A DNA stretch of 64,000 nucleotides from Antedon mediterranea (Eukaryota > Animalia > Echinodermata): contig NC_092672.1 in NCBI RefSeq assembly GCF_964355755.1, positions 7,264,441 through 7,328,440 of the forward strand, in the 5' to 3' direction. Every line of letters starts with the position of its first letter. Position 1 is the stretch's first letter. Shown in pieces: positions 3,475-61,483 of the stretch. A model generated the notes under the pieces. That model worked only from the letters and a program-made list of their open reading frames with translations, did no database searches and was not told the origin of the DNA. The position numbers were made by a program, and so were the translations under genes.

Positions 3475-3477
3475 AAG

Positions 3478-18700: not shown

Positions 18701-19487
18701 ATGCATCATCAACTTCGTAATCATATACTTCATTAATATATAGAACAACACCACCGCCAACGCGATTACTTCTATCATTCCGAATGCATGAGAAACCCTG
18801 AACTGCCGAACACTCAGAAGAAAAATCAGAATGAAACCACGATTCTGTTATACCAGCAATATCAATGTTACTGTTTGCTAAAACTAACTCAAATTCATTC
18901 ATCTTATTGCATAACGAGCGCGCATTACACAGAAAAACACTAGGGTAAATGTTAGACCTACTAAGTTTAGCTTTACAAAAAATTGGAACAAGAATACTAG
19001 GCCCTCTCTCACCATTAATATTAGAATTATCTACTCTTCCTCCGATCTGAACAAGTATTTGCTTCCGCATATTCCGACCAGCACGGCGCCCTCTTTTACG
19101 CTTGAAAGCGGATACATTAGTTCTTGAGAAATTATAATTCAAACCCATAATTATCGGAAAAAAAAAAACAATTCAGAATAAAACAAAGTATCAAAAACAA
19201 AGAGGAATAAGTCAAGAGAAGAAAACCACGAACAGAATATAAAACTTTGATAGAAGAGGCCTTCAACAAAAATTCAAGACAAGCATTGTACAAGTCTGAA
19301 GCTGGTTATCCCCTGTGTGAATAGAGACAATTAGAGGAACCACCAACAATTTAGACAATATTGAAAGACATGAGACATACTATTAATATCTTAACATGTA
19401 CATTACGCTACAGGTATAAAACAATCAGTAAATAAATCATAAAGGGGTCATTTTTTGGAACACAATTGCACTATTAGCAATAATGAA
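15741..19487 (-). mobile_element. Full-length single-ORF non-LTR retrotransposon (CR1/L2-like clade), in NLK intron 4, same orientation as NLK
   Basis: Termini were defined by comparison with the deletion derivative at 22357-22550. It has a 339-bp 5'UTR, a 947-aa ORF and a 564-bp 3'UTR containing two ~110-bp tandem repeats. Confidence 0.7.
16305..19148 (-). CDS. LINE ORF: APE-type endonuclease + reverse transcriptase (FSKAFDRVNH, FVDD) + CR1-type C-terminal domain (LEYASPLWH)
   Basis: Uninterrupted 947-aa ORF. Endonuclease N-terminal motif CNARSLCNKMNEFELVL..ITESW. RT motifs PISITPV, SKAFDRV, FVDD. Confidence 0.85.
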   Translation of the reverse strand: MGLNYNFSRTNVSAFKRKRGRRAGRNMRKQILVQIGGRVDNSNINGERGPSILVPIFCKAKLSRSNIYPSVFLCNARSLCNKMNEFELVLANSNIDIAGITESWFHSDFSSECSAVQGFSCIRNDRSNRVGGGVVLYINEVYDYEVDDACPIDLECLCVDVKINLSFSIVTIVVYYPPNCNRNQQLTEFLCSRIDYFRSVRDNAAFIIMGDFNDYDIDPLLYQTSLEQVVDFPTRDDACLDKMLTNISDLYQSPLKLSPLGRSDHASILLKPNFIQKKPVKRRLLVRRPLKDSSMRAFGQVITGIDWDDIVYEDDSSEYLAAKFESVLKETYEKSFPSVVIRVRDNDKPWFNQSIKKMIEKRHRAYRKGNQTRYRHFRRLVRSEVRLAKSNFYKESISSLRKIEPQKWHKKVQRIAGKSKPQSALLEPGCDPDVVVDVVNKHFARICSFLPALDLRNLPAFLPSVKPPVIFPGQVFKLLKGINVNKSRHPRDIPLRLIKEFALELAQPLAKILNCCLQDNNFPSIWKNAIITPVPKKPKASTPNEHRPISITPVFGRIFESFLSDWIATDFRPLMDSQQFGNAKGSSPTHYLVQLCNRLLSGLDSSGMYGTICAIDFSKAFDRVNHSILIDKLIGLNIMPSIIPTVCSFLSQRNQCVRLGGSVSAPEPISCGVPQGTKLGPILFTIMVNDLLNNVPDRWKFVDDLTIGEVISVQRPEDSSIQSNLDALSSWCVENDATPNPVKFQVMRVHFLRNVPQFEPLQMDGVILEESQSVKLLGVHLQSDLKWDKQIKEVVSRASRRLYMLYILKRFGAPKDDLVFTFITYIRPLLEYASPLWHSSITNKQSDQLEFIQKRVVKLIIGYQNYVSYAKSLETLKLKTLQHRRQVLLYNFGKGLLKSDRFKEWIPEKEKPTRCLRKVNKFDVPRCRTKRLAASTIPTVIGLLNNE

Positions 19488-34002: not shown

Positions 34003-34337
34003 AGTTCTGTCTAATTATCAATTTTACAAACAAAAGTGTGATGTGCCCAAATATGGTAGTGATGTGCCCAAATATGGTAGTGATGTGCCCAAATATGGTA
34101 GTGATGTGCCCAAATATGGTAGTGATGTGCCCAAATATGGTAGTGATGTGCCCAAATATGGTAGTGATGTGCCCAAATATGGTAGTGATGTGCCCAAATA
34201 TGGTAGTGATGTGCCCAAATATGGTAGTAAGTGATATGACAGTATGCCAAAAATATGGTAGTGATACATCATCATCATGTCCATATATGGGCACATCAAA
34301 TGTTTTGTCATATAAAGTTTGATATTGTAGACAGAGC
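34003..34337. mobile_element. MITE family A copy expanded by an internal 21-bp tandem array
   Basis: TIR-like ends gttctgtctaattatcaa / tttgatattgtagacagagc. Nine perfect copies of gtgatgtgcccaaatatggta lie inside it. Confidence 0.65.
34039..34227. repeat. 21-bp microsatellite-like tandem repeat x9 inside a MITE
   Basis: Perfect repeats. They generate spurious ORFs in all frames (34011-34495). Confidence 0.9.
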
Positions 34338-34943
34338 TTTATTTTAATGAGTTCAAAGTTAACACAAATATCAGAAAATTGAACTAGATGAATTATTAAA
34401 TGTAAATTGTATTCACCAATCATGTGTAAAGAGTAAAGATTAGAATGATAACACCTACTCCACCCATTTCCATTTAGACAACAACATAAAATCATTGTTC
34501 AAATCTGATTGACAATTAAAAAAAATGACATGTTACAATTACATATTAATAATAAAGATGATACAGCACTAGTTCAAAGTTTAATTAATTCACTGGTTAT
34601 CAGTCATGAAAACTGTTCAATGTCAGAATGGATTTATGCAAGTTGTAGAACAGCAGGAAAAGACCCTGAACAAAGCTTACTATATGAACAACAAAAACAC
34701 TAATAAATTAGATAATGTAGGCACTGTTTTGGTTTTTTTAAACATGACATCTCCCTCAGGGAGTCAGGGTAGAGTTTTCTCATTTTTTTTTGGTCACAAT
34801 TTCCAAATGCTTTTTACTGTGTATCTGTGTCCTCATCACACACCTACATGTAATTTGAAACACCATTGTGTACTTACTTTATTCCGGATATACTGATTTT
34901 AGATTTATATTTAGTTTAGTATTACTATACTACAGTATACAAA

Positions 34944-35508
34944 TGGGTCTAAAATTGGGTATTGCTAAACACCGCAAACACCGCAAACCTAAAAAAAAAC
35001 ATAGCAAACCACATCGAACCAACATAAATTTCTACTGTTAACTACTTATTTTTGGGGTAAAACATCACTTTTTGGTCAAAAATGATTGCTAAACCCTGCA
35101 AACCTCCAAAAAAATATAGCAAACCCCATCGAACCAACATAAAAGTGATTGAATCATGTAGTGTACAACCCACTGGGTATACAGTATCCATGTAAAAAAA
35201 ATATTAAATTTCTACTGTTAACTACTTATTTTTGGGGTAAAACATCACTTTTTGGTCAAAAATGATTGCTAAACCCTGCAAACCTCCAAAAAAATATAGC
35301 AAACCCCATCGAACCAACATAAAAGTGATTGAATCATGTAGTGTACAACCCACTGGGTATACAGTATCCATGTAAAAAAAATATTAAATTTCTACTGTTA
35401 ACTACTTATTTTTGGGGTAAAACATCATTTTTTGGTCAAAAATGATTGCTAAACCCCGCAAACCTCCAAAAAAATATACTGTAGCAAACCCCACCAAACC
35501 AACATAAA
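34944..35508. repeat. 181-bp satellite array A (~3 units)
   Basis: Direct repeats of the unit aaatttctactgttaactacttatttttggggtaaaacatcactttttggtcaaaaatgattgctaaaccctgcaaacctccaaaaaaatatagcaaacccc... Confidence 0.8.
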
Positions 35509-35509
35509 A

Positions 35510-35636
35510 GTGACAAATATGGTAGTAAGTGATATGACAGTATGCCAAAAATATGGTAGTGATACATCATCATCATGTCCATATATGGGCACATCAAATG
35601 TTTTGTCATATAAAGTTTGATATTGTAGACAGAGCT
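35510..35636. mobile_element. MITE family A partial copy (duplicate of the right half of 34003-34337)
   Basis: Identical to 34230-34337. Confidence 0.6.
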
Positions 35637-36242
35637 TTATTTTAATGAGTTCAAAGTTAACACAAATATCAGAAAATTGAACTAGATGAATTATTAAATG
35701 TAAATTGTATTCACCAATCATGTGTAAAGAGTAAAGATTAGAATGATAACACCTACTCCACCCATTTCCATTTAGACAACAACATAAAATCATTGTTCAA
35801 ATCTGATTGACAATTAAAAAAAATGACATGTTACAATTACATATTAATAATAAAGATGATACAGCACTAGTTCAAAGTTTAATTAATTCACTGGTTATCA
35901 GTCATGAAAACTGTTCAATGTCAGAATGGATTTATGCAAGTTGTAGAACAGCAGGAAAAGACCCTGAACAAAGCTTACTATATGAACAACAAAAACACTA
36001 ATAAATTAGATAATGTAGGCACTGTTTTGGTTTTTTTAAACATGACATCTCCCTCAGGGAGTCAGGGTAGAGTTTTCTCATTTTTTTTTGGTCACAATTT
36101 CCAAATGCTTTTTACTGTGTATCTGTGTCCTCATCACACACCTACATGTAATTTGAAACACCATTGTGTACTTACTTTATTCCGGATATACTGATTTTAG
36201 ATTTATATTTAGTTTAGTATTACTATACTACAGTATACAAAT

Positions 36243-37080
36243 GGGTCTAAAATTGGGTATTGCTAAACACCGCAAACACCGCAAACCTAAAAAAAAACAT
36301 AGCAAACCACATCGAACCAACATAAATTTCTACTGTTAACTACTTATTTTTGGGGTAAAACATCACTTTTTGGTCAAAAATGATTGCTAAACCCTGCAAA
36401 CCTCCAAAAAAATATAGCAAACCCCATCGAACCAACATAAAAGTGATTGAATCATGTAGTGTACAACCCACTGGGTATACAGTATCCATGTAAAAAAAAT
36501 ATTAAATTTCTACTGTTAACTACTTATTTTTGGGGTAAAACATCACTTTTTGGTCAAAAATGATTGCTAAACCCTGCAAACCTCCAAAAAAATATAGCAA
36601 ACCCCATCGAACCAACATAAAAGTGATTGAATCATGTAGTGTACAACCCACTGGGTATACAGTATCCATGTAAAAAAAATATTAAATTTCTACTGTTAAC
36701 TACTTATTTTTGGGGTAAAACATCATTTTTTGGTCAAAAATGATTGCTAAACCCCGCAAACCTCCAAAAAAATATACTGTAGCAAACCCCACCAAACCAA
36801 CATAAAAGTGATTGAATCATGTAGTGTACAACCCACTGGGTATATTCATGTAAAAAAAATATTAAATTTCTACTGTTAACAACTTATTTTGGGGGTAAAA
36901 CATCATTTTTTTGGTCAAAAATGATTGCTAAACCCCGCAAACCTCCAAAAAACCATAGCAAACCCCACCGAACCAACATAAAAGTGATTGAATAATGTAG
37001 TGTACGACCCACTGGGTATATACATTATTAAATTTATACTGTTAACTACTTTTTTGGGGATAAAACATCATTTTTTGGTT
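36243..37080. repeat. 181-bp satellite array B (~4.5 units)
   Basis: Same unit as array A. Confidence 0.8.
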
Positions 37081-37262
37081 AAAAATTAATAATCATTTTT
37101 GACCAAAAAATGATGTTTTACCCTAAAAATAAGTAGTAAATTTTTTTTTTACATTGATATACCCAGTGGGTTGCACACTACATGATTCAATCACTTTTAT
37201 GTTGGTTCGGTGGGGTTCTATGTTTTTTTGGAGGTTTGCGGGGGTTTGCGGTGTTTAGCAAT
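37081..37262. repeat. Inverted copy of the satellite unit, forming a ~190-bp-arm palindrome centred near 37085
   Basis: 37081-37262 is the reverse complement of the unit (rc gttaattttaggggtattgctaaacaccgcaaacccc), so the array ends in a long hairpin. Confidence 0.75.
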
Positions 37263-41516: not shown

Positions 41517-42760
41517 TACTACTACAACAACACAATGCTTCTATGGGTTTCTTGATTCTCGCTAGACTACATCCAAAATCTCCTTACCAACTTACAAAAA
41601 GAAAACATGTGGTTTGTTTTAAGTCGAAAGCAGGAACTTCCACACATCCTCTAGCCCTGGCTTTGTGTGGCCTACTCATGGCAACAAAAATCTATTTAGT
41701 TTTCCCAACAAAAAAACACTTCATTATTGAATAGTCAAATCTTGAATCTTTGGTCTTTTGTTTTGAACAATGTATTGCTAAGTATTTTTTAAACCATTTT
41801 TTTTCTTTTTTTTGTGCTACTTATTGTGTCAACAGGATAATGATATGTAACTGTAATGTAGCATACACTACAGTATTATTATTTTCACATTTACACACAA
41901 CATTTAAAAAAAACATTAAAACAAAACAGTAAATTAAAACTTGATTATTAATATTAGAATGTGTATACATTTCAGTTTTAAAAATTTAAATAAATAACTT
42001 GATGATTTTCTTTAAATAAAAAAGACTAATTTGATTATATAAATTAGGAAATACATTTCACATAGTACAACAAGAGTACAACAAAAATGACTTAATAAAG
42101 TTGTCTATATTTTGTCTAAATACAGAAAGAGTTTTAATAAACTGAATAGTAGTAGTACAGTAGCATCAAGTAGAAACTATTTATTTAGTAAATGACTATT
42201 TTTGAATTTCATTTTCATAAAAGAATATAAAAATAAGTATTCTACAATAAAATTATTCCAAAAACTATAAATAATTATATGGAAGTATTTTATTTATTTC
42301 ATACTTGACATTGTATAGTACGTTGTCAATCAGCTTTTGTTTAAGCATCAACCAGCTGATTTTTAAAGGTCTCTTCAAAACACAATTATTTTCAAAAAGG
42401 TGACCATGTACTTTTAAAGGCCATATTTTGATCCATTTAATTCAATATAAAAACAGTAACTACAATTATTATTTAGATTACAGCTGTATTATAATTTTTT
42501 TTATCATACATCAGATACTAAACTTGCAGTTCTATTTTATAAAGATGCAAACAAAGAGAATTGTCGGCAATTCAGTCACCGTTTTGTTGGACGTCCACAC
42601 GTCACCAACTTTCAATTGATATATGAACATGTTAAAATAATATTCATTTAAACGTAATGTAATTAAAATGTATGTATATAAAGTAAAATTTTGTTCAATA
42701 TTCATCAAAAATTTATATATGAAGTTAAAATAAACAAAGTTGAAGGAACAAAGGACTTAC

Positions 42761-42963
42761 CATACAACACCAAACGCACCATAACCGATCGGTCTGTCGG
42801 GCTCGAAATCTGCCCGTGTTGTCGACGTTGATGATGGTGTTGTGGTCGACGAAATGCCATTTCTTTGCTGATAAAATGCTTGTGAAGCATTTAGAGCACT
42901 TTGTTCGTGTAGAATACCACGAAAGTTCACATTCTGTCTTACTCTGGAACCACAGACAGCCAT
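42761..42963 (-). CDS. NLK: NLK exon 1 (start codon at 42963): MAVCGSRVRQNVNF...TTRADFEPDRPIGYGAFGVV(W)
   Basis: ATG reading MAVCGSR (human MSLCGAR). Glycine loop GYGAFGVVW. Donor gtaagt at 42755-42760. Confidence 0.8.
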
Positions 42964-44279
42964 AGTTGAAGAACTATGAAGCTCGAATGTAAGGTCTTCT
43001 TTGAATCGACAAACGCCAACCAACAAGCCTTCGTCGGTAGCACCAGCAAATGCAGCAGGGATAGGCTAACCACTCTCAACGCACACACCCGAAATTTCGG
43101 AGCGAAATTATACGTTTTTCTCAACTTAATATCATAATTTGAGTCAACCACTGGTATGATTAAGACCAAGTAATGACTGTTGTTTCTTCTGGTGAGCTGT
43201 GGGTTCACAGACGGTAGAGATTTGTGGTCATGGAGTGAGCTGCACTTGTACTGACCACCTCCACTCTACCGATCAGCTGCCTGCTCGCGATCGACAATCT
43301 ACAAAAAGAACAAAAGATCGCCTGGACGCTTTAAATCATAATTATAGATGGCGCTATTAACAATTTGGAAATTATCATAATTAATACACAGCAGCATCAT
43401 CATAACTAGATTTTTATTTGTTTTAATTTATTTAATCGTCATTAATGCCATCATAATCTTCACTGTCATTATCACCCTCACGAATTTAACGCTTATAAAA
43501 ACACAAAATTCAAATAGTAAATCTAATCTAATCTTGCCATATTATTTTAAGTGTTGTTCTAGGGACACTCTTCCACCAAATTTCTTTTGAAAGACAATTT
43601 TTTTTTTTCAATTATACAAGGTTCTTTTCATTTCAAACAGGGCAATTCCTGTATTCGGCAATGAAATACTTGCACAGCTAACATCAGGAATTACCAACAC
43701 CAGGAGCATTCATACACAACCATCAGCTCCGACGCGTTAGATCATTCACCCTCCCCAAAGTCCGGACACAACGCACAAAAAACTTCATTACTTTCCACGG
43801 AGTTTTCAATGATTGGTGAATGATCAGAAACTGAGTTATGATAAGCAATTGTGAACCCCTTTTGGTTTGTGTTACTGGATGTACTATGATGGCCATTGAA
43901 AGACTGATTTGTGGACTATGATATATTTTAGTATTACTTGTTTGGACTGTGTTATACTATGTTTTTTTTTTATATATATTTATTATTATATTTATGTCAA
44001 CTTCATCACTGTTTACTTGATGCAATAAAGGAAATAAATAAATAAATAAATAAATACAACACATTCATTTTTTATACACAGTGTGATTGTTTTATGTAAA
44101 ATCGAATTGCAATATTACAACTGTCTATTAAAAATTATTAATAAATGTACATTAATTACCATATTCTTAATCTTTATCATTTTAAAATAACTAATATTCT
44201 GTATAATCACCAGGCAGTTTGGAATTTCTTTTAATACCTATAAACCTTTTTAAATGATAAATTGTTGTTGTTCCTGGCC

Positions 44280-44420: not shown

Positions 44421-46007
44421 TGTAAAGACGTTGGTATTGTGTATATACAATACAGATGTACCCAATAAAGAACTTGGTACACTATTCATGAGGGGATCAT
44501 CTCCCGATATGCTTATTATTTTGGTAGGCCATACACTGCTTCTGTGGGTCCGTAGAGTACCTTATATCTTCAATTTTAATAATAATACAGTTACATATTC
44601 AGTTCATACATCATCATAAGGTGCAGTAAGTCTAATGTTGTAGTTGTACCCCTCAGGTTCATCGTAATTTGATAAGCAAACCGACGGTAGACCTTCCCGC
44701 GTCTGGTCCGCTAAAAAGTTGTAGTGCCGTAGTTCACCTCTCAATCTATAGTGTGAATAAGTCAATTTCATCAATTACAACTATATATACTATATATAGT
44801 GCAAATAATGTGCTTTATTTGTTTTGCAAAACTAAATGTTAGAGTCACAAATTATTGGTATTTGCATCAAATCATGCCTAAAGGGTCTATCACAACCTCT
44901 CCGGTCTGGCTGTAGTTCAAATTCATGTCAAATTGCATGTACATCGTTTCGCCAACTATCAGTTGGCTTTCTCAAAGTGTAGTGACACGTATGTCACCGT
45001 TGACCTCTAGATGACAGGTAAATAATCGTTATTTACTATTACGGTTGAGATATAATTAACCAGAACAGGTGTGAAAGATGTTTAAAAGTGCCAGTAGGTA
45101 GAAAATATGTTTTTCTTAAATATATCACACACTAACTTACCTTTTATGGGTGACTGTCTCAAAATCATCTTGCAAACTTTTTATATTTGGAATATTTGCA
45201 GTTACCAAGCTACTACCTTTAAAATGTGTATACCTAACAGGGTGTCTAAAAAAAATTATTATATATAGATTAATATGCAGACTCAAAGGATAAAGGAAAA
45301 GAAAGATAGGGGGTCTCGGTGGTGTGTGAGTTAGGACATATTTTTTTCAAACTATTTTTTTATTGCATGATTTAAAAAAAAGAGGAATTTCTATAAATGG
45401 GCTATAGTACTACATAAAACCATAGAGGGTGCTATGAAAAATCTAAAAATATTGGTAAATAGGTGAAAAATGTGTTAGCAACACATTATATCAAACGCAT
45501 GAATGAATTATAAAAATGATACAGACCAATATTAGTTTTCTATTCTCTATCAATATATAGAGTAGTAGAAATTATAAATTTATACATTTTTTAGTTTTAG
45601 TTTTTAGTTGACTCAAAGTATCAGGAGACCGTACCGCCATTATCGGGAGAGTTGGGATGTCTGATTTCTAAAATATTAAAGTCAGTTAGGCTTGGGCAGC
45701 ATAACGTTTTTTAAAGGCATTATACATCAACAGAAATAAGTGCTGTATATTTACAATAACTTCAACAAACGTACAGAATTACAGGCCTTGTCTTTTGAAA
45801 ATTATAGGTGTGCTGCAAATTGCACTCCTCAATACATTCAGGGATGCTGTAGGTGTGCTGTTTGTACATTGGTGTGTAGAAGTTTGCCAAATTTAAGTGT
45901 GTTGTAAATTGCACACTCAAAGGGCAGTTTAGGCGTGTGTTAGGCGAGTGATCGCATTAGCTCGCCTTCAAAGACAAGGCCTGGAATTAATATGTAAAGA
46001 GATCTAC

Positions 46008-46187
46008 CTAGCATATGTATCCCAAAGCTTTCTTTGCATTCTTTGATCCCAAAGACACACCATGCCTTCCATACCACCACTTAGAACCTTCCAATCATCG
46101 GCCTGCACCTGAGTGACAGCGCCCCCATGTCCAGATAAACTCATGACAGGACGATTGCTTTCTAGACGTAAATCAAACAGCCGGACT
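46008..46187 (-). CDS. F-box/WD40 gene exon 8: (R)VRLFDLRLESNRPVMSLSGHGGAVTQVQADDWKVLSGGMEGMVCLWDQRMQRKLWDTYA
   Basis: Acceptor ctattcaatag, donor gtagat. WD repeat motifs (SGH..., LWD). Confidence 0.55.
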
Positions 46188-46317
46188 CTATTGAATAGAA
46201 AATATTTAGCATACAGTCGATCTCCATCGAATAGGAAATATTTAGCATAATCTGGTTAAAGTAGATGTGACTTCTTATGCCAAATAGCATTCTACATTTT
46301 CTCTTATATCTCTTTAC

Positions 46318-46673
46318 CTCTTATCTTTACATCCCGTAACAAACATGCTCCTAAGAGGGTCATCACCATGAATACAAGTAACATTCCAAGTATGTCCTCG
46401 GAACACTTGCTTTATGTTTTTTGTCTCAACGTCAAAGAATTTAACTGAGAAGCTCTCTTGGAAGCCTGCGACACCAAACCCGCAGACAATATAATTGTTC
46501 ATGACCTCCATACAAGTCGGTATTCCTGAGCCTCCTACAAAGGCATGTACAAGGCTTAGATACCTAGGCCCTGGTGCAGGCTGATAAATGTATAGTCCTG
46601 TATTTGTTATTAACGCTACATTGGTGGCTTGCTGGTTTTGATCCAACATTGGAAAAAGTTTCATATCTTCAAT
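46318..46673 (-). CDS. F-box/WD40 gene exon 7: IEDMKLFPMLDQNQQATNVALITNTGLYIYQPAPGPRYLSLVHAFVGGSGIPTCMEVMNNYIVCGFGVAGFQESFSVKFFDVETKNIKQVFRGHTWNVTCIHGDDPLRSMFVTGCKDK
   Basis: Acceptor ttttttttgtacag, donor gtaaag. Long open frame with WD signature FRGHTWNVTC. Confidence 0.65.
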
Positions 46674-46779
46674 CTGTACAAAAAAAAAATAAAGAAGAAT
46701 TATAATTGAATGCCATATCATATCTTGTATACTGTGTAACATTTATTCATAAGAATGAAGATTATTTGATAAAGTAGAA

Positions 46780-47030
46780 TTGTAACTTGATGGTTAAGAT
46801 GTTTGCCTCCTGATTTTACGGTACTGGGTTCAAATCCTGCTGATCTCAGAATGTTGGTTTCAAGACTAGAATAATATACCAGAGCCCTGTAATACAGTCA
46901 TGGCTGTATGATTAGTCTATTTTAGTATGCATTCTAGTGTGTATTCTAGTCCAGATAAAAAATCTTGAGATCAGACAGGATCGAACCCAGGACCATACAA
47001 TCGGTAGCCAAGCCAATATATATGACAAAA
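46780..47030. repeat. Foldback element with inverted tRNA-like arms (ctgggttcaaatcctgctgatctcagaatg / rc ctgggttcgatcctgtctgatctcaagatt)
   Basis: Two inverted T-loop-like segments separated by ~70 bp, in an F-box gene intron. Confidence 0.45.
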
Positions 47031-47032
47031 AA

Positions 47033-47117
47033 ATGTGTTATATCACTTGGGCATATCACTACCATATTTGGGCACATCACACTTTTTTGTCAAACTAGTT
47101 TGATATGGCAGACGGAG
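47033..47117. mobile_element. MITE family A partial copy
   Basis: gggcacatcacacttttttgtcaaactagtttgatatggcagacggagc. Confidence 0.5.
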
Positions 47118-47145
47118 CTTTAACCACAGAATCACATCTACTTAC

Positions 47146-47339
47146 ATCAGTATCCAAAATGATAGAATCTTGCTTATACCAATTGCCTGAACCATTGGCA
47201 GTCTCAACTCGTAGTTCCCTCCCAGAGGTACTTGCAACTTGGGCAGCATCAGTTGCTATAGACGCACATCTAATACTATCTTGGTGATAACGATGGACAG
47301 GGTCACCACCATGCTCTGTGCTCCATATATTCATGTCAC
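47146..47339 (-). CDS. F-box/WD40 gene exon 6: (G)DMNIWSTEHGGDPVHRYHQDSIRCASIATDAAQVASTSGRELRVETANGSGNWYKQDSIILDTD
   Basis: Acceptor ctacttaag, donor gtaagt. Phase links exon 5 to exon 7. Confidence 0.6.
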
Positions 47340-48025
47340 CTTAAGTAGTTAAACGTTTCATTTGTTTGTATCATTGTTATGTAAAAATAATTGTCGGAGT
47401 AAAATTGTTGTGTAAAACACAAAAATGCAGTGTGACATTTACTAGCAGATTCTCAGTATTGTATCATATATAATTTGTGCAGTATCCAGGCAAATTCTAT
47501 AATACATTGTCACATATGCATCTCATGTGGTGGCTGTAAATAGGCTAAAAGACTAACCAACCTTAACCCAATACAGGTGTGACATTGTACAACAAAACTT
47601 GCCTATGATACTGAAGACATCATGTTATATATGTGAAAATACAGCACAGAGAATCGGCTGCTTTTACTATAACTAAACGTCCTTTTCAATACATGGCATC
47701 GTTCCCAGTGCTTTTCACTTTGCTGAGATCACTTCTTTAATAATAATAATAATAATACCAGCATATCTTTTAGACAACCATTACTTACACATTATAGTTC
47801 TATAAAATAATATTACTATATAATATAAATACATTTTTTTTTACATAAAGTACATGAGCACTCTTGAGTGGTATGTGCGCTATAAAAATCCTGTATTGGT
47901 GGTGGTGGTACATCATCTGTTAATGGATTACGAGACATGGCTGTATCAATACTTTATATCATTCTAAACATACAGTAATTAAACCCGGAGACATTTTAAT
48001 TTTGTTTTAGTGTTTATTTACTCAC

Positions 48026-48093
48026 CATTTGTGTATGTCGCAATGGAAACGATTGAATTCACAGCCACGTGATTGACCTCTGGCATATCACAA
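48026..48093 (-). CDS. F-box/WD40 gene exon 5 (short version): (G)CDMPEVNHVAVNSIVSIATYTN(G)
   Basis: Acceptor ccatgctttttag, donor gtgagt. This is the only arrangement compatible with the phases of exons 4 and 6. Confidence 0.45.
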
Positions 48094-48526
48094 CTAAAAA
48101 GCATGGTTTCATTTTCAACTTGACCATTTACTTTCCACAGCCTAACACTACCATTAGAATAACTAAGTATAAAACAATACAATGTTAATTAATGATTTAC
48201 AGTATTTATTCAAATAAATTCCTGACTTTGAATTAACACCCCCTCGCAAAAACGCCCCGCCACATGCAGTACATACACAATATTCTATCACAACACATTT
48301 CTATTTGTAGTAGAATTCATTGATTGATCTACAAATTTGATATCATTTTGATGCAATTTTTACAGTTTTTTTTATCCCTTTTCGATATTAATTTTTTTTT
48401 TTCATATCTAGGGGGTAGTTATTTGATGTTACAAATATATAAACGCCTCCCTCTCCCAGGACGTTTATTCAAATAATTTTGTATTATGGTGGTCCTTAAA
48501 ATTGATAATTGAAATTCTTCTCTTAC

Positions 48527-48615
48527 CCTGATATAACGGCATTGTCAGAAGAACTTGCCGTACATAGAACACCACCGGTAACATGCTCAAGTGCGGTCAC
48601 TCGACCGATACGACC
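48527..48615 (-). CDS. F-box/WD40 gene exon 4: GRIGRVTALEHVTGGVLCTASSSDNAVIS(G)
   Basis: Acceptor ttttgtgtag, donor gtaaga. Confidence 0.55.
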
Positions 48616-48973
48616 CTACACAAAATGTACAACGTGACTAATTTACTTTTAAACGGGCTATTGATGGATCAGTACTCTTGGTTAACTCCCTACTCTTCTG
48701 AAAGATGCACTGGGTTGTAGTGCACACAAGTGAGACATTTACACAGGATCTCTAGTTTTAAGTCCTTACCCGAAAAGACTTGTTTTATTTACTACTAGAA
48801 CCATGGTTAAAGACAGTCTTTGACCTGTGCCAATTTTAGGGCTATTGTTTGCAATGGCCCTGCCTTAAGTGCTCAACCATTTGACTCGCCTGTACTCTTA
48901 CCTTACTATTTTAACATTTACTTAAGCCTTAACTAGTATAGATATGCTCTCTTTAATAAATGCACACATTTAC

Positions 48974-49138
48974 CTTCCAATTGGCTAATAGCAAATCTTT
49001 CTGCATTAAGCCATCTCTGACTGCCTCTTTCCAATTTGGTTCATTATCAATACTGACCTCGTCTGAAAGACCTAGCGATTGATAAAAAGGAAACCATAGC
49101 AACTGGTCATTTGCCAAACTTCGCCAACTGGAGCTCAC
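48974..49138 (-). CDS. F-box/WD40 gene exon 3: VSSSWRSLANDQLLWFPFYQSLGLSDEVSIDNEPNWKEAVRDGLMQKDLLLANWK
   Basis: Acceptor gtgttctag, donor gtaaat. The C-terminal part of the F-box (..W..LA.D..LW) is as in FBXW proteins. Confidence 0.7.
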
Positions 49139-49312
49139 CTAGAACACAAAAAAACCTTGTTGAAAAAAAACCTATAGAACAAAGGTCCTTGTGTTTTTTT
49201 TAGCAGTAGCTGAATTCCGTTGCGGTTCGCGGGCTGTCTGTTGAGAACACCTACTTATGATAGAAATACAATGGAAATTGAAAACAAGCTCAAATCTGTA
49301 TGGTGTTCTTAC

Positions 49313-49417
49313 CTGTGCACAGTTACATAGGTCTTTCATGCTTAGATGCTTGAAAATCTTAACACCAATTTCACGTGGAATCTCTATATCAAAAAACGGT
49401 ATTTCATTTAATTCGTC
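49313..49417 (-). CDS. F-box/WD40 gene exon 2 (F-box core): DELNEIPFFDIEIPREIGVKIFKHLSMKDLCNCAQ
   Basis: Acceptor cattttttcag, donor gtaaga. F-box consensus LP.EI..KIF..L...DL..C..V. Confidence 0.75.
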
Positions 49418-49722
49418 CTGAAAAAATGATAATACATAGAAAGAATTATAGTAAGCATCAACTGAACAATACTATCATTAACCTCATACACATAAAAACA
49501 TTATGGGTTTGTCAACATAGTGTATGGATGTACTGTATTTGAAAAAGATGATGTTAACTGTGAAATATACACTAGTGGCCAGATTTAGACTTTTGATTTT
49601 TATTTAAATCACTTAGATTTGATCAGACATTGTTATGTTGATCTGCATCACAAAAAGGTTACCTCTGGTTAGAGGGAGTGTCTAATGCGGGGTCTCAATT
49701 GGAGTATACTGAATTTTCATAC

Positions 49723-50103
49723 CAAATCTGATATGAAAGTTTCAAGAAATCCGAGTGTCTTGTTTTTTTCTTCATCATCTTCATTGTTCATCTTTCTTCT
49801 CTTCCAAGCATTCTGATTTGTCAGTCTCTCACTTGTGCTAGCTTCATTCTGATTGGTCAGTCTCTCACTTGTGCTAGCTTCATTCTGATTGGTCACTCTC
49901 TTGCTTTCATTTCTATTCTGTAATCTTTTTCCTTCCAGTAAGGTTTCAACAATTGTAAATGGTGTGTAGTTCACTTGGGCATTTATATCAACTGTGTTCT
50001 TTGTGTTCTTAGGATCTGATTTGTGATCAGAGATTCCAGGTTCAGTCTTTTTTTCTTTCAGTTCTTTTTTCCAAGACACTCTAAACTTGTCTAAGTCATC
50101 CAT
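49723..50103 (-). CDS. F-box/WD40 gene exon 1 (start codon at 50103): MDDLDKFRVSWKKELKEKK...NEDDEEKNKTLGFLETFISDL; contains 12-aa tandem repeats RLTNQNEASTSE
   Basis: ATG-initiated open frame ending at donor gtatga. A 36-bp DNA tandem repeat lies at ~49800-49900. Confidence 0.6.
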
Positions 50104-51442
50104 CTTCCATTTTAAACATTTTTACCTTAAATAAAAAAAAAATTTTAAACTGATGATGAGCATGATATTACGTTAACTACGCCAATACATGTTTGCTTTG
50201 CGTCATGCGCAATTTGAACAACTTTACCCAACAAGTAGTTGATTCAAATCAGCGCAAATGTTATGATAAACCTACTTATCAGCATAGGCCTAGGTAGACA
50301 GATTTAATAAAATATAGGCCTACTAATCCATACCATATCAAAGAAAAGAATACAGATTTCAATTTTACCTCTGGACAAATCCATGAAATCGAACAGAAAA
50401 ATTAGTCCTAGCTAACCTAAAATCTAGCCGTGATCCAAGTGAGAGGTTATGAGCTAAATAGGCCTATGCTAGGCCTAGCTAGGTTAGAGTACCGGTAGTG
50501 GTACTAGCCGACTATATTCTCTAGGCGAGGGAGCTAGTACTAGTAGTAGGTTAAGGCTAGGCTAGGGCCAGGCCTAGAGGCCTAGTTTTATTTTAAACAA
50601 TGACCAACCTAGTCCTAACTAAAGATCTCTAGGCCCATGGCTAGCTTCTATTAGTTAGCTTAGCCTATGCCTAGTAAAGCTGAAATAAGTTAAGGGATCC
50701 AAGTTAAGTTTTAATAATATATAAATATACCCATCCTCTGAACAAAATAGAGACATTTTAATTGAGTTGATATTGAAAATAAAATAAACACACTTTGTTT
50801 ATGTTGTATAGCGCCATCTACGAATAATGTGATTAAAAACTTTTTAAGAATTAAGAGAGAATTATGCTCATATGCTCAAATAATTAATTAATTCCTCATT
50901 TACACTTATTATATGAAACAACTTGCATTATGAAGTGTAAAAATAAGTTTTTATTTATTTCTTTTCATCTTTGTATATCTTTGTATATATATTTTATTGT
51001 AATAAACTATTACATAGATTATTCTATATTTTATTGTTATCAATTATTTTTATTTTTCAAAACTCACTTTTTAACCGTTGCAATCTTATCTTTGCATGCT
51101 TAAGAAGTTATAAAAAAAGAACCATGCTGTCACGTGCGCTGTGTAGTGCGCGTATTTGATAGTTTCCAAGAGCTAGTAAAATATTGGTATTCAATTGGCT
51201 AGTTAGTGCGCTCACCGCGCTTACAATAGAACAGCGCAACCATTGTTACGTTATCAAATATTCGAATATATCTAACGACTATTCCAAATTTAAGTCAGAA
51301 TGAAAAATTCTTTCAATTGATGAACAGTGATTTCAAATTGCTCTTCATTAAAACGAAATAACACTGCTTTTACCGTGCAATTCAGTTTGGGAATACTATA
51401 CATCTATTTCCTATTGAATTTGCTATATTTACATCATCTGCT

Positions 51443-53062
51443 ATGGCAAAGTTGATATTTAAAAGAAGATATAATGCTTCTTTAGAAGAAGCCCAGAATG
51501 CGGTGAGATCAAATGAGTATCCCGCCGCTAAGTACGCTAGGTTCCTCCAGGTGAGGAATAGAAGGGCTAGGCCTAGAAACAGGGGGTGTCCTTATGTCAG
51601 AAGAAACGCTAATGTTAACCCAACTTGTAAGTTAGGCGGCCTACACGAATTAGATACACTTATAAAAACGGAAAACAAATCAGCTGATATCAATTATTGT
51701 CATTTTGATCATGAATTAGGCCTAGGCCTAGGCCTAAATACAAATGATATGCCTATCATAATTATAAGTAGTGATAGTAGTAGTGATTGTGACATTATTA
51801 TAAGTAGACCTAGTACCAATGATGGTGATAGGCCCAGTGAATATCAAATGTTGTCTCCAAATACAAATGATATGCCTATCATTATAAGTAGTGATAAGAG
51901 TAGTGATAGCGACATCATTATTAGTATTAGCAGTGATGGTGATAGTAGAAGTAGGCCTAGTGAAGACCAAATGTTGTCTCCAAATACAAATGATATGCCT
52001 ATCATGATAAATAGTGATAACAGTAGTGATAGTGACATCATTATTAGTATTAGCAGTGATGGTGATAGTAGTAGTTGGCCTAGTGAAGACCAAATGTTGT
52101 CTCGAAATACAAATGATATGCCTATCATGATAAATAGTGATAAGAGTAGTGATAGTGACATCATTATTAGTATTAGCAGTGATGGTGATAGTAGTAGTAT
52201 TAGTAGTAGTGGTACTATGCCCAATAGTAAGAGTAGCAGTAGTGGCGATAGTACTAGTCGTAGTATTAGTAGCAACAGCATTGGCAGTAGCAGCATAGGA
52301 GAAAATAGTAGCACTGTTGTAGTCGTAGGAAATGGTGATGTTTTGTTTCATTTTCCAGGTAGTGATAACAATTCTAACGACATTTCAAATGAAAATTTTG
52401 AATTTGAATCTAATAAAGAATATTTTAATTCATTAATTAATCGTGAAAAAATATCTGAAAATCCATGGGCACATTTTGAATCACAATCAGTCAAAGATCA
52501 TATGGTAGAATTTTTATGTAATATTCGATCTGAACTCATTCGTTATGAATACATAATCGATTATGATATTGTTCATCGTAGCCTTACAATTATAGAAAAT
52601 GTACTAATCTGTGATAACACAGCATTTAAACTTGGAGATCTCGAGGAATTGGCAATTGCATCATTTTGCCTTGCATTGAAATGTGCTGAACGATACCAAT
52701 CTAAACACATCATCCCTTATGCGTGTGACCGCCTCCGGAATCTTGGCTTCTTCAATCCTAAAAAAATTGCCCAAATAGAATTTAAAATATTAAAGATAGT
52801 AAACTTTAATATCAATAGTGTCACTTGTCTTGATTTTGTTCACATTTATTGCGATATTGCTATCAGTAAAGCTACAACCAACAACAACAAACGTAGAATA
52901 GAAAGAGTAAGACACGAATCTGTCAAATATTTGATTACAAATAAAATATCTCTTACAACAGTAAAGCCATCCGCAATAGCTTACTTAATAATTAACGCAA
53001 TTCTGGAGAAACTAGAAATACAAGACTCATTCTATTTTGAGAATAATGACGATAGTTCTTAA
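51443..53062 (+). CDS. Intronless cyclin-box (cyclin N-terminal domain) protein, 539 aa, with four ~40-aa tandem repeats carrying SIM-like cores (DIIISISSDGD) and a Ser-rich linker
   Basis: Single ORF. The C-terminal ~200 aa carries a cyclin-fold pattern (MVEFLCNIRSELIRYEYII, LAIASFCLALKCAE, KKIAQIEFKILKIVNFNI). 120-bp DNA repeats lie at 51760-52200. Confidence 0.65.
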   Translation: MAKLIFKRRYNASLEEAQNAVRSNEYPAAKYARFLQVRNRRARPRNRGCPYVRRNANVNPTCKLGGLHELDTLIKTENKSADINYCHFDHELGLGLGLNTNDMPIIIISSDSSSDCDIIISRPSTNDGDRPSEYQMLSPNTNDMPIIISSDKSSDSDIIISISSDGDSRSRPSEDQMLSPNTNDMPIMINSDNSSDSDIIISISSDGDSSSWPSEDQMLSRNTNDMPIMINSDKSSDSDIIISISSDGDSSSISSSGTMPNSKSSSSGDSTSRSISSNSIGSSSIGENSSTVVVVGNGDVLFHFPGSDNNSNDISNENFEFESNKEYFNSLINREKISENPWAHFESQSVKDHMVEFLCNIRSELIRYEYIIDYDIVHRSLTIIENVLICDNTAFKLGDLEELAIASFCLALKCAERYQSKHIIPYACDRLRNLGFFNPKKIAQIEFKILKIVNFNINSVTCLDFVHIYCDIAISKATTNNNKRRIERVRHESVKYLITNKISLTTVKPSAIAYLIINAILEKLEIQDSFYFENNDDSS

Positions 53063-53346
53063 ACAGATTAGGATAACTTAAAACATAATGTAAGTAAGTT
53101 AAGTTAAGACAAAACAATCAAATGTATATTGGATCTAGAATATAGTTTTATAGGATTAAATTGATTAAGGAAAAGTTTTTAGCTAAATAGATTAGTCTAA
53201 GATGTGCAATATCTAAGTACAATGTAAGGTGATAAGTATATAAAATAACGTTTTAAAAATGTAGATTACTGCAGCACTTGTACTTAAGAAAAACAAAGTA
53301 AGATAAGTAATGTGAATTAAAAACAATATTGCTATTGTAACATTAA

Positions 53347-53550
53347 AGCCTGTTTTCCTGTCGACGTTAGTCGACGCTATCGTTAACAATAATCGGCGAT
53401 CTTCTACGTAAACATTGAAATGTTAACGATTTACAGGAAAGGGTACTCGCTATCGTTATCATTTCAACTTGATCGTTTTTAAACGATCGTCGTTGAACTG
53501 TTAACGATCAACGACGATAGCGTCGAATAACGTCGACAGGAAAACAGGCT
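53347..53550. mobile_element. MITE with perfect ~21-bp TIRs (agcctgttttcctgtcgacg / cgtcgacaggaaaacaggct), 204 bp, possible TTAA/TA target site
   Basis: Perfect inverted termini. AT-rich flanks ..cattaa | ..taaaac. Confidence 0.6.
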
Positions 53551-54968
53551 TAAAACATGCTCTAAGGAGGATATTAATAATACTAATAATAAAGTAAAAA
53601 TAGCTTATTAATGATAATGATTGAAATAAGTAATTCGTTTCAGTAATATATCCGTTGTTAAGTTAAGTTTTTTTTACCGTAATCAATACAAAAAAAAGGA
53701 GGGAAAAAAAAACAAAAACAACAAAAACGCTTAATGATACTAAGTTGAAATAAGTTTTTAGTTAGTAAGAAATAAAAAAAAAAACTTTTTTACGAGTTTA
53801 TATTTTAATAATAATTTTTAATTAAAAAATGTTATCGTAAGTTAAATCAAGAAAGAACGTTAAAAACAAAATATAATATTGTAATTATTAAAAAATTTTT
53901 CGTATAACAGGTTTTAGGTCTATATTATTGTATAGTAAACCATTAAAATAAGTAATTTATTCAATAATCTTATTTATTTATCAGTTTTAGTTCGATAAGG
54001 AATTGAAAAAAAAAACTCCAAAAAAAAAACCAAAAACAAAAACAAACAAAAACACACAAAAACACCCCAGTCTGAAGTCGGAGATGCTACCTCATCGTGG
54101 TAGACTGGTGTCAACATCATTCGTAACCAAACTGGTACTAATGGTGGCTAACAGCATCACGCATCTTGTACCATACTTACAATCGCACACTGATACCACA
54201 CATTTGTGATGTCACGGATGTAGGCCACTTATTGAGTGAAAACATCAACAATATTTCTTTTTTAAATACGTATTATATATGATTATTAATATGATATAAA
54301 GCTCAGGAGTGCGGGTAGGATTATAAATAATTTAGGTGGGATCGACTATGTGTGAAAGCTAATATGAAGTAAACACAGACTTGATAAGTTATTTTGGTGC
54401 TTTTTTCTCTCGTTTGTCCGGGCACTACTACTTTTGTTCAATCATCAAGTCGTCATATCCATGGTAGAGGTAAAAATGTTATGGAGGCTATTACAATTCC
54501 ACTTATCCAAACATTTTAAAATTGTGTAGGCCTACAAAGAACACATATTGACACTAATATATGAACACATGAACCATCAAGTAAGTATTGGTTTTTAGTC
54601 GCGTGGAGTGCAAACGCGACTCTGCAGCTCACTATGTCGGTCGTTTGGTCGGTCGGTTTGTCGATTGATCGGTAAACACTAACTCAAATTTGAGCACGCG
54701 ACTGCAGCCATGTATATGGTCTTTTTATTTTTATAGAAAATGCCAGACTTTTGTTTTTTTCAGTCTATAGAACGCCCTCTTTCTAATCAATGCTTGTATA
54801 GTAAATTCTTGCATAATTAGTTAGCATTGCATTGCGAACGCAGAACATCGAGTCTCACAATCTTCTGAGTTGTCGAAGCTTCCTGACTGTGAACGCTGCT
54901 GACTAGTCACATCCATTGCGCTTCTGGATATTACCGAAGACTCTCATTTAATTGATAGACCATTAGTC

Positions 54969-57170: not shown

Positions 57171-58093
57171 GTAAGTTGAATATTTTTCGACACATTATAG
57201 AGATAATGTTTTGTTCTTTGGAAAAAAAAACATTTTGTTGTTGAATATGCCACACTTCGTTTTTGTACCTTTCCAAAAACAAAAAAATTGTTGAATGAGC
57301 CACTTTATTTTTCACTACACCAACAAAAAAAACATTTAACTTGAAAAAAAAATCATAGTTTGACTGGAAAAAGTTGACCGAAATTATTTGTAATTCTTTT
57401 TTTAATATAACCATTTTAACAACCATTTTATATAGCTATTTAATATCGTTTTTGTTCTAAAAGGTCCATGTTTGTGGACAATAGATCCTTAAAAAGAAAT
57501 ATTTTATTTCAATTATAAGACAATTTACGGTATCAATGACAATATAGCTTAATTCAATATTTGTATTCATTACCCTTATTTAATGTTCAGTGATTTTCTA
57601 TTTATTTTATTGGTGATACAGAAAACGTTGTTTGCGTCTTGTGACAAGGCGATCCATTATATAATTTACGTAGCTTGATGTACTGTTTAACATTACGGAT
57701 ATTGATAATTATACAAAACTAGGGCATTATCAGCAGATCAGTAACTCTTCTGCAAATACTTTCAATTTACATTTCGACATGTTTTCTTAAACAATAATCA
57801 GAAAGTTCACGGCAGAAGAAGTAGGCCTATTCTTATGATATTTTATGTAAAGCCTAATAATATATACTATTAAATAAATATAATTAATAGATATAAATAA
57901 TGTTGCTATTGAACATAAGGGTCAGAAGTTGATAAGGTAAATCAACCAAACTAGTAAAAACTACCATAAATATAATCGGATGGCATGAGAGGCTTGGTAA
58001 GAGAAAACATATTAGGTTGTGATTGGATTAGCTGAAATTCAAAGACAACAGAACTGAGGTAATCTACAAATAAGAGTTTACAAACGTTTACAG

Positions 58094-58239
58094 TGATGGT
58101 TAAGATGAATGGTTCAGAAGAGATTTCTGGAGCAGGGCTTGGAAATACCTACTTAGCTGAGCAATTTCACTTCCACTGGGGCAACAATGATTCCGTCGGT
58201 TCCGAGCATCTAATTGACGGTAGGCAGTATCCAGCTGAG
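58094..58239 (+). CDS. alpha-carbonic anhydrase exon 4: [49 protein letters not shown]
   Basis: Acceptor tttacag, donor gtaagc. Zinc ligands HFHWG. Confidence 0.85.
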
Positions 58240-58367
58240 GTAAGCTTTGAGTTCGTGTATCCCGTATTCTTACTCTATCCCATGCTTATTATGGAACTGA
58301 ACAATCCATTCAAGCATTACTACTGGATCCTCTAGTGTATAAACAGTGTTTGTTTTATTTTGCGTAG

Positions 58368-60098: not shown

Positions 60099-60974
60099 GT
60101 AGGATTTTCAAGATTTTCAAATAAATGCACATTCATTACCGGTAATTAGGTGCATCCGTCTATTTCTATATTTATCACAAAAATTAATTACGGATATTTG
60201 ATACAATGTGACTAATTATTAACCGTCATATTGTGTGGGTCTACGTCAATGATTCGCTTTGTAATACAACAGTTATCGTGGGAAAAAATCTTTCCTAAGT
60301 ATCGCCTCATGTTTTACGATTGTTTTTTTTTGACATAGTGTTGGTCGTCTATTAATTTTTATACATAATGAGAACACTTGTATAGTAGCATTTTAGGACA
60401 GGATAACGTCAACGATCATTTTTATATTCCATATTAATACTCATCTTAAAATGAGTGGATGTATTCTCCGTTTTAATGTGCTAAATCTATACAACATACA
60501 ATATTCGTTGGCGACGACACGAAGTTACATTGATGTTGCTACGCGCATGACACTAACGTGTATAGCCCATATTAGTTTATTAACAAAATTACAATAAAAT
60601 TACACCTTTTTTAATAGCTGATTTGTCTAGATTTGCTAAATAAAACATATAAATAAAAATTCCTTTAAGCTAAAATTGTGTGTTTTGTGAAGCTCTCTAC
60701 TAAATCGCATTTTTCGCGAAACGCATGGTTAGCCTAATATGTCAAAATGACTACGCGGTTGGTTTCTCTTCGTGGTACGGTGTCGCTGACGAATTGTGAT
60801 ACTAGATTACATTGTGTCATATTCTTCCATATGATGTACAGCGGTAGAAATCCAAGGTGATATATTAATATGACGCTATATCGTGCAATTTATCTCATTG
60901 CACTGCACAATTTGAAGATTATAATTTATATATAGATACCAATACAATTACCTTAATTTGTATATTCTTTTCAG

Positions 60975-61135
60975 GCAATTCGATTCGATTTCCGAGACCA
61001 TTCGATGTAAAAACTCTTTTCCCGAAGTCACTGAGTCAATACTTCCGTTACGATGGTTCTCTAACCACACCAGATTGTCACGAAAGCGTAGTTTGGACGG
61101 TTTTCAACGAACCGATCAAAATTTCTAAAAAACAG
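60975..61135 (+). CDS. alpha-carbonic anhydrase exon 7: [53 protein letters not shown]
   Basis: Acceptor tcttttcag, donor gtacgg. GSLTTP active-site motif. Confidence 0.85.
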
Positions 61136-61483
61136 GTACGGTGAAGAACATATTGCTCAAATGTTAATTCGATTGGGTACCTATTTGCCCACACAAAATG
61201 TGGCCAGTTACGTTGTAGAAATAAAAGCCTACCTACCATTATTAATCCACCAAATTGGAAACGCCATTTAGGCCTACTAAAAAATAGGATCAATCAAAAT
61301 AACATTTACTTCCAAAAAATGCTTGTCGGGGACGTATTGCTTATTAATAAAGATCATTCATTTCAATGTTTGCTGCCGCCTGGAATGTATCAAGATTCAT
61401 TAGTGTAATGACCAGTTTATGTTACCGATTATTTAACATATGCATAGTGTCATGTATTCATAAAAATACCTTTTTGTTAACAG

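Follow-up and report, generated by a model that had tools for sequence, protein, structure and literature searches.

An intronless open reading frame of Antedon mediterranea joins a putative, very divergent cyclin box to an array of SUMO-interaction-motif-like repeats

Results

A single-exon open reading frame with a coding signal

We analyzed 64 kb of the genome of the crinoid Antedon mediterranea (contig NC_092672.1 of RefSeq assembly GCF_964355755.1, positions 7,264,441 to 7,328,440, forward strand; the whole stretch of 64,000 nucleotides is referred to as the window, and coordinates count from its first letter). The subject of this study is an open reading frame (ORF) at 51443..53062 on the plus strand. 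It starts with ATG, comprises 539 codons plus a stop, and its coding sequence is uninterrupted, with no internal stop. The start codon is flanked by G at position -3 and G at position +4. A preliminary description of the window had reported an intronless ORF of 539 aa; ORF calling recovered the same coordinates, and the peptide strings quoted in that description are all present in the translation. The features of the locus are listed below, with the basis of each assignment in parentheses.

51443..53062, plus strand: complete single-exon ORF, 539 codons plus stop (ORF calling, open-frame probability)
51443..51736, plus strand: basic N-terminal region, aa 1-98 (composition)
51737..52198, plus strand: array of 3.75 repeat units of 123 bp (41 aa) each, aa 99-252 (Tandem Repeats Finder, unit alignment, composition)
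52199..52432, plus strand: Ser/Asn-rich low-complexity linker, aa 253-330 (composition)
52559..52816, plus strand: core of a putative first cyclin fold, aa 373-458 (Pfam Cyclin_N profile positions 48-127, hhalign, four-way alignment)
52817..53041, plus strand: putative second cyclin fold, start only, aa 459-533, with a P-S-x-x-A motif, KPSAIA (alignment to KAL9245813.1)
50104..51442, no strand assigned: 1.34-kb intergenic region, head-to-head with an FBXW8-like gene (presumed promoter region)

The stop-to-stop frame containing the ORF extends over 566 codons and ranks second by length in the window. Given the base composition of the window (about 31% GC, corresponding to a stop probability of 0.077 per codon), 566 open codons are expected by chance with a probability of about 1.6e-20, and the 245 nonrepetitive codons at the C-terminal end with a probability of about 2.7e-9. 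The GC content at codon positions 1, 2 and 3 was 0.40, 0.28 and 0.23 in the nonrepeat C-terminal part of the ORF, compared to 0.30, 0.31 and 0.31 in the flanking DNA. Every insertion or deletion (indel) between the repeat units keeps the frame, and the ORF showed zero overlap with the dispersed repeat families of the window. The open length, the codon periodicity, the in-frame indels and the lack of dispersed-repeat overlap thus establish that the gene is real as a sequence feature.

The C-terminal part resembles a cyclin box

Among 24,736 Pfam families, Cyclin_N (PF00134) was the best match of the protein, with 17.7 bits (E = 0.003) for the C-terminal 230 aa, below the curated cut-off of 23 bits, and with 15.2 bits (E = 0.018) for the full length. 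An exhaustive phmmer search of 1.84 billion representative proteins returned a sole and marginal match, KAL9245813.1 from the plant Gypsophila vaccaria (E = 3.8e-4, 27% identity). The alignment was colinear over 219 residues (query residues 13-231 against target residues 18-233). That this plant protein is a genuine cyclin is evident from its matches to Cyclin_N (8.9e-25) and Cyclin_C (1.2e-11); among proteins of solved structure, it is most closely related to cyclins D1 and A2. We built a small cyclin profile from cyclin D1 and A2 fragments together with KAL9245813.1, leaving the query out, and hhalign matched the query to this profile over 120 columns (probability, 84.9%; E = 6.4e-6).

A four-way alignment of the query, cyclin D1, cyclin A2 and KAL9245813.1, in which the query was 19 to 22% identical to the other three sequences, contained an R, the A-x-K-x-x-E motif, an E, a T and the P-S-x-x-A motif as invariant elements. 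The corresponding pairs (query/cyclin) were IRSEL/MRxI, ALKCAE/ASKFEE, QIEF/RMEH and KPSAIA/LPSVIA, with QIEFKIL aligned to RMEHLVL. The D of YIDRF was replaced by E in the query. BLAST and MAFFT pairwise alignments placed an R at the position of the K, and the register at this position is uncertain by one helical turn. We take R211, D240, K266 and E295 (cyclin A numbering) to be the signature residues of the cyclin box; the K and the second E presumably contact the kinase in the complex of cyclin A with CDK2 (a cyclin-dependent kinase [CDK]), and the R-D pair is presumably structural.

In pairwise BLASTP comparisons of the C-terminal domain with the human cyclin D1 or A2 fragments alone, the result was E = 1.4 or no match. 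The cyclin assignment therefore depends on the profiles and on KAL9245813.1. We favor a diverged cyclin box because the Pfam search and the search of the 1.84 billion proteins each returned a cyclin, with the same residues in the same register, and the C-terminal 210 aa or so very probably represent a very divergent cyclin box.

The preliminary description had read the C-terminal third of the protein as a cyclin N-terminal fold, and it had named the lack of a Cyclin_N match at any threshold for the C-terminal 230 aa as an argument against this reading. The search gave a match, albeit a sub-threshold one, and the assignment is supported by the best Pfam family, the sole phmmer match and the hhalign comparison. 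Its extent had to be revised, since the colinear alignment continues beyond the first fold into the beginning of a second one, including the P-S-x-x-A motif, and the stop codon leaves this second fold incomplete. No Pfam match to Cyclin_C was obtained at E<=10. The alignment ends at residue 234 of KAL9245813.1, whose Cyclin_C domain occupies residues 171-284, and the ORF stops about 20 aa later. A downstream exon that could complete the second fold was searched for by tblastn of KAL9245813.1, cyclin D1 and cyclin A2 against the window, which found only the ORF itself.

The central part consists of SIM-like tandem repeats

Tandem Repeats Finder reported a repeat at 51736-52199 with a period of 123, 3.8 copies and 89% matches. 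The units begin at 51737, 51860, 51983 and 52106. Each comprises 123 bp (41 aa), with the fourth copy being three-quarters long. The tandem array noted in the preliminary description is therefore real, although four units of about 120 bp and 40 aa had been stated there. Identity between units 2 and 3 amounts to 93%, and a single codon separates unit 3 from the partial unit 4; an identity of at least 93% among units 2, 3 and 4 agrees with the recent expansion that had been proposed. Unit 1 is the most divergent (about 84% identity), differs through in-frame indels only, and is the older copy of the array.

Within each unit of 123 bp, a 36-nt sub-repeat (family D3) is present twice, and at the protein level two modules can be distinguished per unit, namely, PIIII, PIII or PIMI followed by SSDxSSD, and DIIIS(I)SSDGDS. 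From these two sub-repeats per unit it follows that the whole array derives from one 12-residue module, I-I-I-x-S-S-D-x-S-S-D-x-D, which was duplicated and then amplified. Ser (28%), Asp (17%) and Ile (17%) are prominent in the array, which has a pI of 4.1 and carries nine sites of the CK2 consensus S/T-x-x-D/E. Judging from this composition, the array is probably disordered.

SUMO-interaction motifs (SIMs) consist of a hydrophobic core that is flanked by acidic or phosphorylatable residues (PMC6735914). On the basis of this definition, a strict test was applied that demands a psi-psi-x-psi or psi-x-psi-psi core (psi being V, I or L) and at least four D, E or S residues among six flanking residues. 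The test was passed by four sites of the array, IIII at aa 105 and IISI at aa 159, 200 and 241. The remaining four modules failed it, their cores being degraded or limited to three residues (PIII, DIII and two instances of PIMI). A fifth hydrophobic core with a weaker flank, VVVV, is located in the linker at aa 292-295 (nt 52316-52327). Taking at least three clustered cores as the hallmark of a poly-SIM region, we count four strict and four weaker cores within 154 aa that are rich in Ser, Asp and Ile and have the acidic pI given above. The preliminary description had called this a textbook arrangement of clustered SIMs; the motif layout does fit, but strict matches are confined to the four array sites, with the linker VVVV in addition. 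The repeats thus match the SIM definition, a hydrophobic core with an acidic or phosphorylatable flank, at the motif level only.

The array is framed by two regions of different composition. The N-terminal region (aa 1-98) has a pI of 10.0 and contains the basic clusters KRR, RNRRARPRNRG and RR, which may possibly serve in nuclear import. It ends in a (TAGGCC)3 microsatellite (51717-51736) that encodes GLGLGL. The linker that follows the array (aa 253-330) consists of 31% Ser and 14% Asn, as expected from the Ser-rich linker mentioned previously. A biomineralization-type acidic matrix protein was considered as an identity for the gene product and was rejected: the N-terminus is basic and not signal-peptide-like, and a cyclin-like domain is present.

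Relatives of the protein

Neither the full protein nor its C-terminal 245 aa gave a match in word-indexed homology searches; for the full-length query, 8000 short-word candidates were collected and none scored, the search probably having been swamped by Ser-rich matches. No paralogue of the 539-aa ORF was found elsewhere in the window, no viral relative in the viral contig collection, and no relative in a metagenome scan. The protein, viral and metagenome searches thus returned no homologous protein family, consistent with the earlier statement that a described family combining these parts was not recognized. The cyclin-like box and the SIM-like array constitute a combination without detectable relatives. 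An N-terminal poly-SIM-like array on a cyclin-box protein appears to be unprecedented, which does not make it a new class of protein.

Genomic surroundings and origin of the ORF

Upstream of the ORF, an FBXW8-like gene is encoded on the minus strand (44607-50103, ATG at 50103), with at least eight exons and F-box/WD40 features. Its best match was XP_071944104.1 ([quoted passage not shown]), followed by a protein of Anneissia japonica with 63% identity. The cleanly delimited exons (aa 1-127, 218-247 and 476-536) were 100% identical to XP_071944104.1, which identifies the window as A. mediterranea DNA. Exon 1 of this gene contains at 49809-49916 (minus strand) an in-frame 36-nt tandem repeat of three copies, two of them 97% identical, which encodes RLTNQNEASTSE; since XP_071944104.1 is 100% identical across exon 1, this repeat belongs to the annotated product.

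Between the FBXW8-like gene and the ORF lies a block rich in CTAG and GGCC (50280-50680). In the window as a whole, 19 copies of the palindromic octamer TAGGCCTA were counted against 0.51 expected, and 0 of 100 shuffles contained as many. Its sites cluster at 50285-51959 and have unrelated contexts across the window; one of them is the (TAGGCC)3 microsatellite, and copies are also located inside the repeat units. The excess could reflect a genome-wide motif or a binding site.

Two further host genes were recognized by eye in the six-frame translation. Upstream, an exon of a Nemo-like kinase (NLK-like) gene lies at 42760-43065 on the minus strand (DRPIGYGAFGVVW). Downstream, exons of an alpha-carbonic anhydrase containing QFHFHWG lie at 58063-58332 and 60869-61141 on the plus strand. 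An intact 947-aa ORF at 16305-19148 (minus strand) is of the ORF2 type of long interspersed nuclear elements (LINEs), with endonuclease and reverse-transcriptase motifs recognized by reading the translation, and may possibly still be active. The preliminary description had stated that every neighboring gene is multi-exonic; this applies to the host genes, but the LINE ORF2 is a second uninterrupted reading frame in the window.

Several other repetitive elements were observed. An element of 212 bp that resembles a miniature inverted-repeat transposable element (MITE) is located at 53343-53554, 280 bp past the stop of the ORF; its terminal inverted repeats are 41 nt long and 95% complementary, and its ends are of the TTAA type. 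A 1298-bp tandem duplication with 100% identity (34216-35513 and 35514-36811; 34216-36811 in total) embeds an array of an approximately 180-bp satellite (35025-37086) and represents either a very young event or an artefact of the assembly. A dispersed family of about 100 to 150 bp, similar to short interspersed nuclear elements (SINEs) or MITEs, is present in at least 12 copies with 72 to 88% identity, and its translation recurs as IFGHITLFVKLV. Copies were located near 3476, 11321, 12045, 12664, 20565, 22021, 24938, 34207, 35510, 47052, 56046 and 59268, several of them within introns of the FBXW8-like and carbonic anhydrase genes. Rfam and tRNA scans of the window yielded nothing.

To account for the absence of introns, the preliminary description had offered a retrogene or a lineage-specific, fast-evolving gene. 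For a retrogene, no parent was detectable: in a collection that includes RefSeq proteins of A. mediterranea, no protein reached E<1e-3 save the plant cyclin KAL9245813.1. A-rich tracts occur 630 to 710 bp after the stop, among them those at 53690-53730, but similar tracts exist nearby and elsewhere, and none makes a convincing poly-A remnant. The k-mers shared between the flanks are AT-rich 11- to 13-mers, which are too few and of too low complexity for a target-site duplication, and none is so positioned. No long terminal repeats (LTRs) or terminal inverted repeats (TIRs) that bracket the ORF were found, and the Pfam scan of the protein revealed no transposase, reverse-transcriptase or viral domain. 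The LINE demonstrates that the genome has retrotransposition machinery; nothing links it to the ORF locus. A lineage-specific, fast-evolving gene fits these observations better than a retrogene.

Discussion

Comparison with known cyclins and SUMO readers

The predicted protein shares with cell-cycle cyclins (Cyclin_N PF00134/Cyclin_C PF02984), e.g., the D-type cyclins, a colinear arrangement over the first fold and the start of the second, and it keeps equivalents of the R of MRxIL, the K and E of ASKxEE, the E of RMExxxL and the PSxxA motif. It differs from them in a second fold that is about 50 residues short, in the exchange of D for E in YxDRF, in the sub-cut-off profile score, in a 330-aa N-terminal extension without counterpart and in the lack of orthologues in the databases searched. 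New interaction surfaces have been acquired by a cyclin before: Cyclin B3 of placental mammals gained them through internal expansion (2012 study, cited in PMC6446836). In contrast to the protein described here, Cyclin B3 is a conserved B-type cyclin of clear orthology whose two folds are complete, and its extension is not a SIM-like array.

On the side of the array, the closest functional parallels are found among SUMO-targeted ubiquitin ligases (STUbLs). RNF4 and RNF111/Arkadia read SUMO chains by tandem SIMs and resemble our candidate in closely spaced cores, acidic or Ser-containing flanks, and a probably disordered region joined to an effector domain (PMC4083429, PMC3678163). The putative effector domain of the A. 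mediterranea protein is cyclin-like rather than a RING, its cores lie in a near-identical 41-aa tandem array rather than in unique-sequence SIMs, and there is no sequence homology. No E3 domain of the kind joined to the SIMs of a STUbL was seen, since RING, U-box and HECT families were absent from the Pfam scan of the protein at E<=10. In DAXX, phosphorylation by CK2 of the serines that flank SIM2 increases the affinity for SUMO1 about 30-fold (PMC6735914); the nine S/T-x-x-D/E sites of the array, next to hydrophobic cores with phosphorylatable Ser, are similar to these phospho-SIMs at the motif level only. SIMC1 likewise combines SIMs with a partner-binding domain, and its complex is localized to specific nuclear sites in SMC5/6 targeting (PMC9708086). 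Its other domain is Nse5-like and not cyclin-like, and no sequence relationship was detected by Pfam or phmmer.

A functional precedent for the connection of SUMO and a CDK is provided by SUMOylated Rb, which recruits CDK2 via a SIM in CDK2, so that a kinase-borne SIM brings CDK phosphorylation to a substrate that carries SUMO (PMC4957593). In that system, a single SIM resides within CDK2 itself, whereas the ORF would encode an array on a cyclin-like subunit whose activity is hypothetical.

A model for the function of the protein

We tentatively interpret the locus as an intact, single-exon, lineage-restricted gene for a fast-evolving cyclin-like protein whose SIM-like array would tether it to SUMOylated nuclear proteins, a plausible reading that we place a little short of probable. 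According to this model, the acidic and probably disordered array would make multivalent contacts with poly- or multi-SUMOylated proteins, and CK2-type phosphorylation of the serines beside its cores would strengthen this binding. The cyclin box might bind a CDK or another partner of cyclin boxes. By analogy with the logic of the STUbLs, the protein could then concentrate the CDK or partner at SUMO-rich nuclear sites and act as a SUMO-directed targeting subunit. Rapid evolution of the gene would explain the lack of detectable orthologues. In its most far-reaching form, that of a "SUMO-targeted cyclin," the array would read SUMO chains and the cyclin box would recruit a CDK, whose phosphorylation activity would thereby be directed to SUMO-rich nuclear structures. 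Candidate sites would be PML-body-like condensates, centromeres, DNA damage sites, and meiotic chromosome axes or crossover sites. This specific form is speculative, and we consider it very unlikely.

Alternative explanations

Several observations weigh against the model of a SUMO-tethered cyclin-like protein, and most of them would also be expected if the ORF were nonfunctional or barely functional, i.e., a decaying old cyclin copy or a young proto-gene shaped by minisatellite-like slippage of an AGT/GAT/ATT-rich unit, which is not expressed or not selected and whose resemblance to SIMs is a by-product of repeat composition. The exact protein was absent from a collection of 15 billion proteins and from called-gene records, and no homology search recovered a model of it, whereas the collection does contain the neighboring XP_071944104.1. 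The locus thus seems to lack an annotation as protein coding, which is weak evidence against strong expression support. Neither a paralogue nor an orthologue was found, the latter at E<1e-3 among the 1.84 billion representatives, although the collection holds the FBXW8-like RefSeq protein of Anneissia japonica; given that even FBXW8 shares just 63% identity between these two species, an orthologue that evolves fast could be missed at the threshold of a search in the whole library. Nonsynonymous codon differences exceeded synonymous ones among units 2 to 4 (6:1, 3:1 and 1:0), which is compatible with neutral drift, with differences too few to tell drift from selection. The cyclin assignment itself is affected by the sub-threshold Cyclin_N score and by two PDB sequence searches without a match at E<=10. 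AlphaFold models, computed from the single sequence or with KAL9245813.1 as the sole alignment partner, were all-helical and of low confidence (predicted local distance difference test values of 42 and 46). A Foldseek comparison of such a low-confidence model with the PDB placed cyclin D1 at the top with a nonsignificant E of 0.13 and a template-modeling score of 0.22, and it carries no evidential weight. Truncation of the second fold renders stable folding and CDK activation doubtful. The SUMO binding, CDK binding, CK2 regulation, nuclear localization and biological role proposed above are all inferred from sequence. Across the repeat array, the two reverse frames are open as well, as is typical of low-complexity DNA, and the GC content at third codon positions of the ORF (0.23 to 0.26) is lower than in the FBXW8 exons (0.35). 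Arguments against a nonfunctional ORF are the low chance probabilities of the nonrepetitive codons (about 2.7e-9) and of the whole frame (about 1.6e-20), the clear codon-position periodicity of the C-terminal part, and indels that are in frame throughout the array. The retention of the cyclin signature residues despite extreme divergence points to past or continuing constraint. We therefore regard this explanation as somewhat unlikely, although it deserves serious attention.

A different alternative accepts a functional cyclin-like protein and holds that its repeats do not read SUMO; being phospho-acidic and of low complexity, they could instead form a CK2-dependent charge patch, promote condensate formation, bind histones or other basic proteins, or act as a degron. 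Many proteins that have no connection with SUMO contain tracts rich in Ser and Asp. The resemblance to SIMs lies at the motif level, with strict matches in four of the eight modules and with a first module that has decayed to PIMINSD in units 3 and 4, and the descent of all modules from one 36-nt unit means that a single motif was amplified rather than that several converged independently. The Ile/Val triads or tetrads that adjoin Ser/Asp clusters correspond, on the other hand, to the phospho-SIM layout of DAXX (PMC6735914), the amplification retained a hydrophobic core with an acidic flank in most copies, and no signal peptide or secretion feature points to an acidic protein of the biomineralization type. 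In our judgment, a non-SUMO role of the repeats is unlikely. Acquisition from a mobile element or virus (a captured or viral cyclin) or a LINE-mediated retrocopy would explain the absence of introns in an ORF that lies amid multi-exon neighbors, and the LINE ORF2 in the same window, the MITE-like element 280 bp past the stop and the A-rich tracts at 53690-53730 would be in line with such an origin. It is made highly improbable by the lack of relatives in viral contigs and metagenomes, of transposase, reverse-transcriptase or viral Pfam domains, of bracketing LTRs or TIRs and of a target-site duplication, by the presence of A-rich tracts elsewhere, and by the failure to detect a parent cyclin at E<1e-3 or other copies in the window.

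Implications

If the gene is not expressed, the locus is just a further ORF, unannotated and decaying fast, of an echinoderm genome rich in repeats, and it calls for caution in deducing function from low-complexity motifs. The domain combination is noteworthy if real. Should the ORF be expressed and both halves work as the sequence suggests, it would encode the first natural protein in which a polySUMO reader is directly joined to a cyclin box. Such a protein would link SUMOylation directly to the targeting of a CDK, a connection for which only the single SIM of CDK2 (PMC4957593) and engineered condensates that recruit kinases (PMC10101210) have been available so far. It would constitute a kinase counterpart of the STUbLs, and it would illustrate how repeat amplification in a lineage-specific gene can create a new signaling connection: a signaling adaptor would have formed quickly in an orphan gene by duplication of a 12-aa motif and its subsequent amplification as a 41-aa unit.

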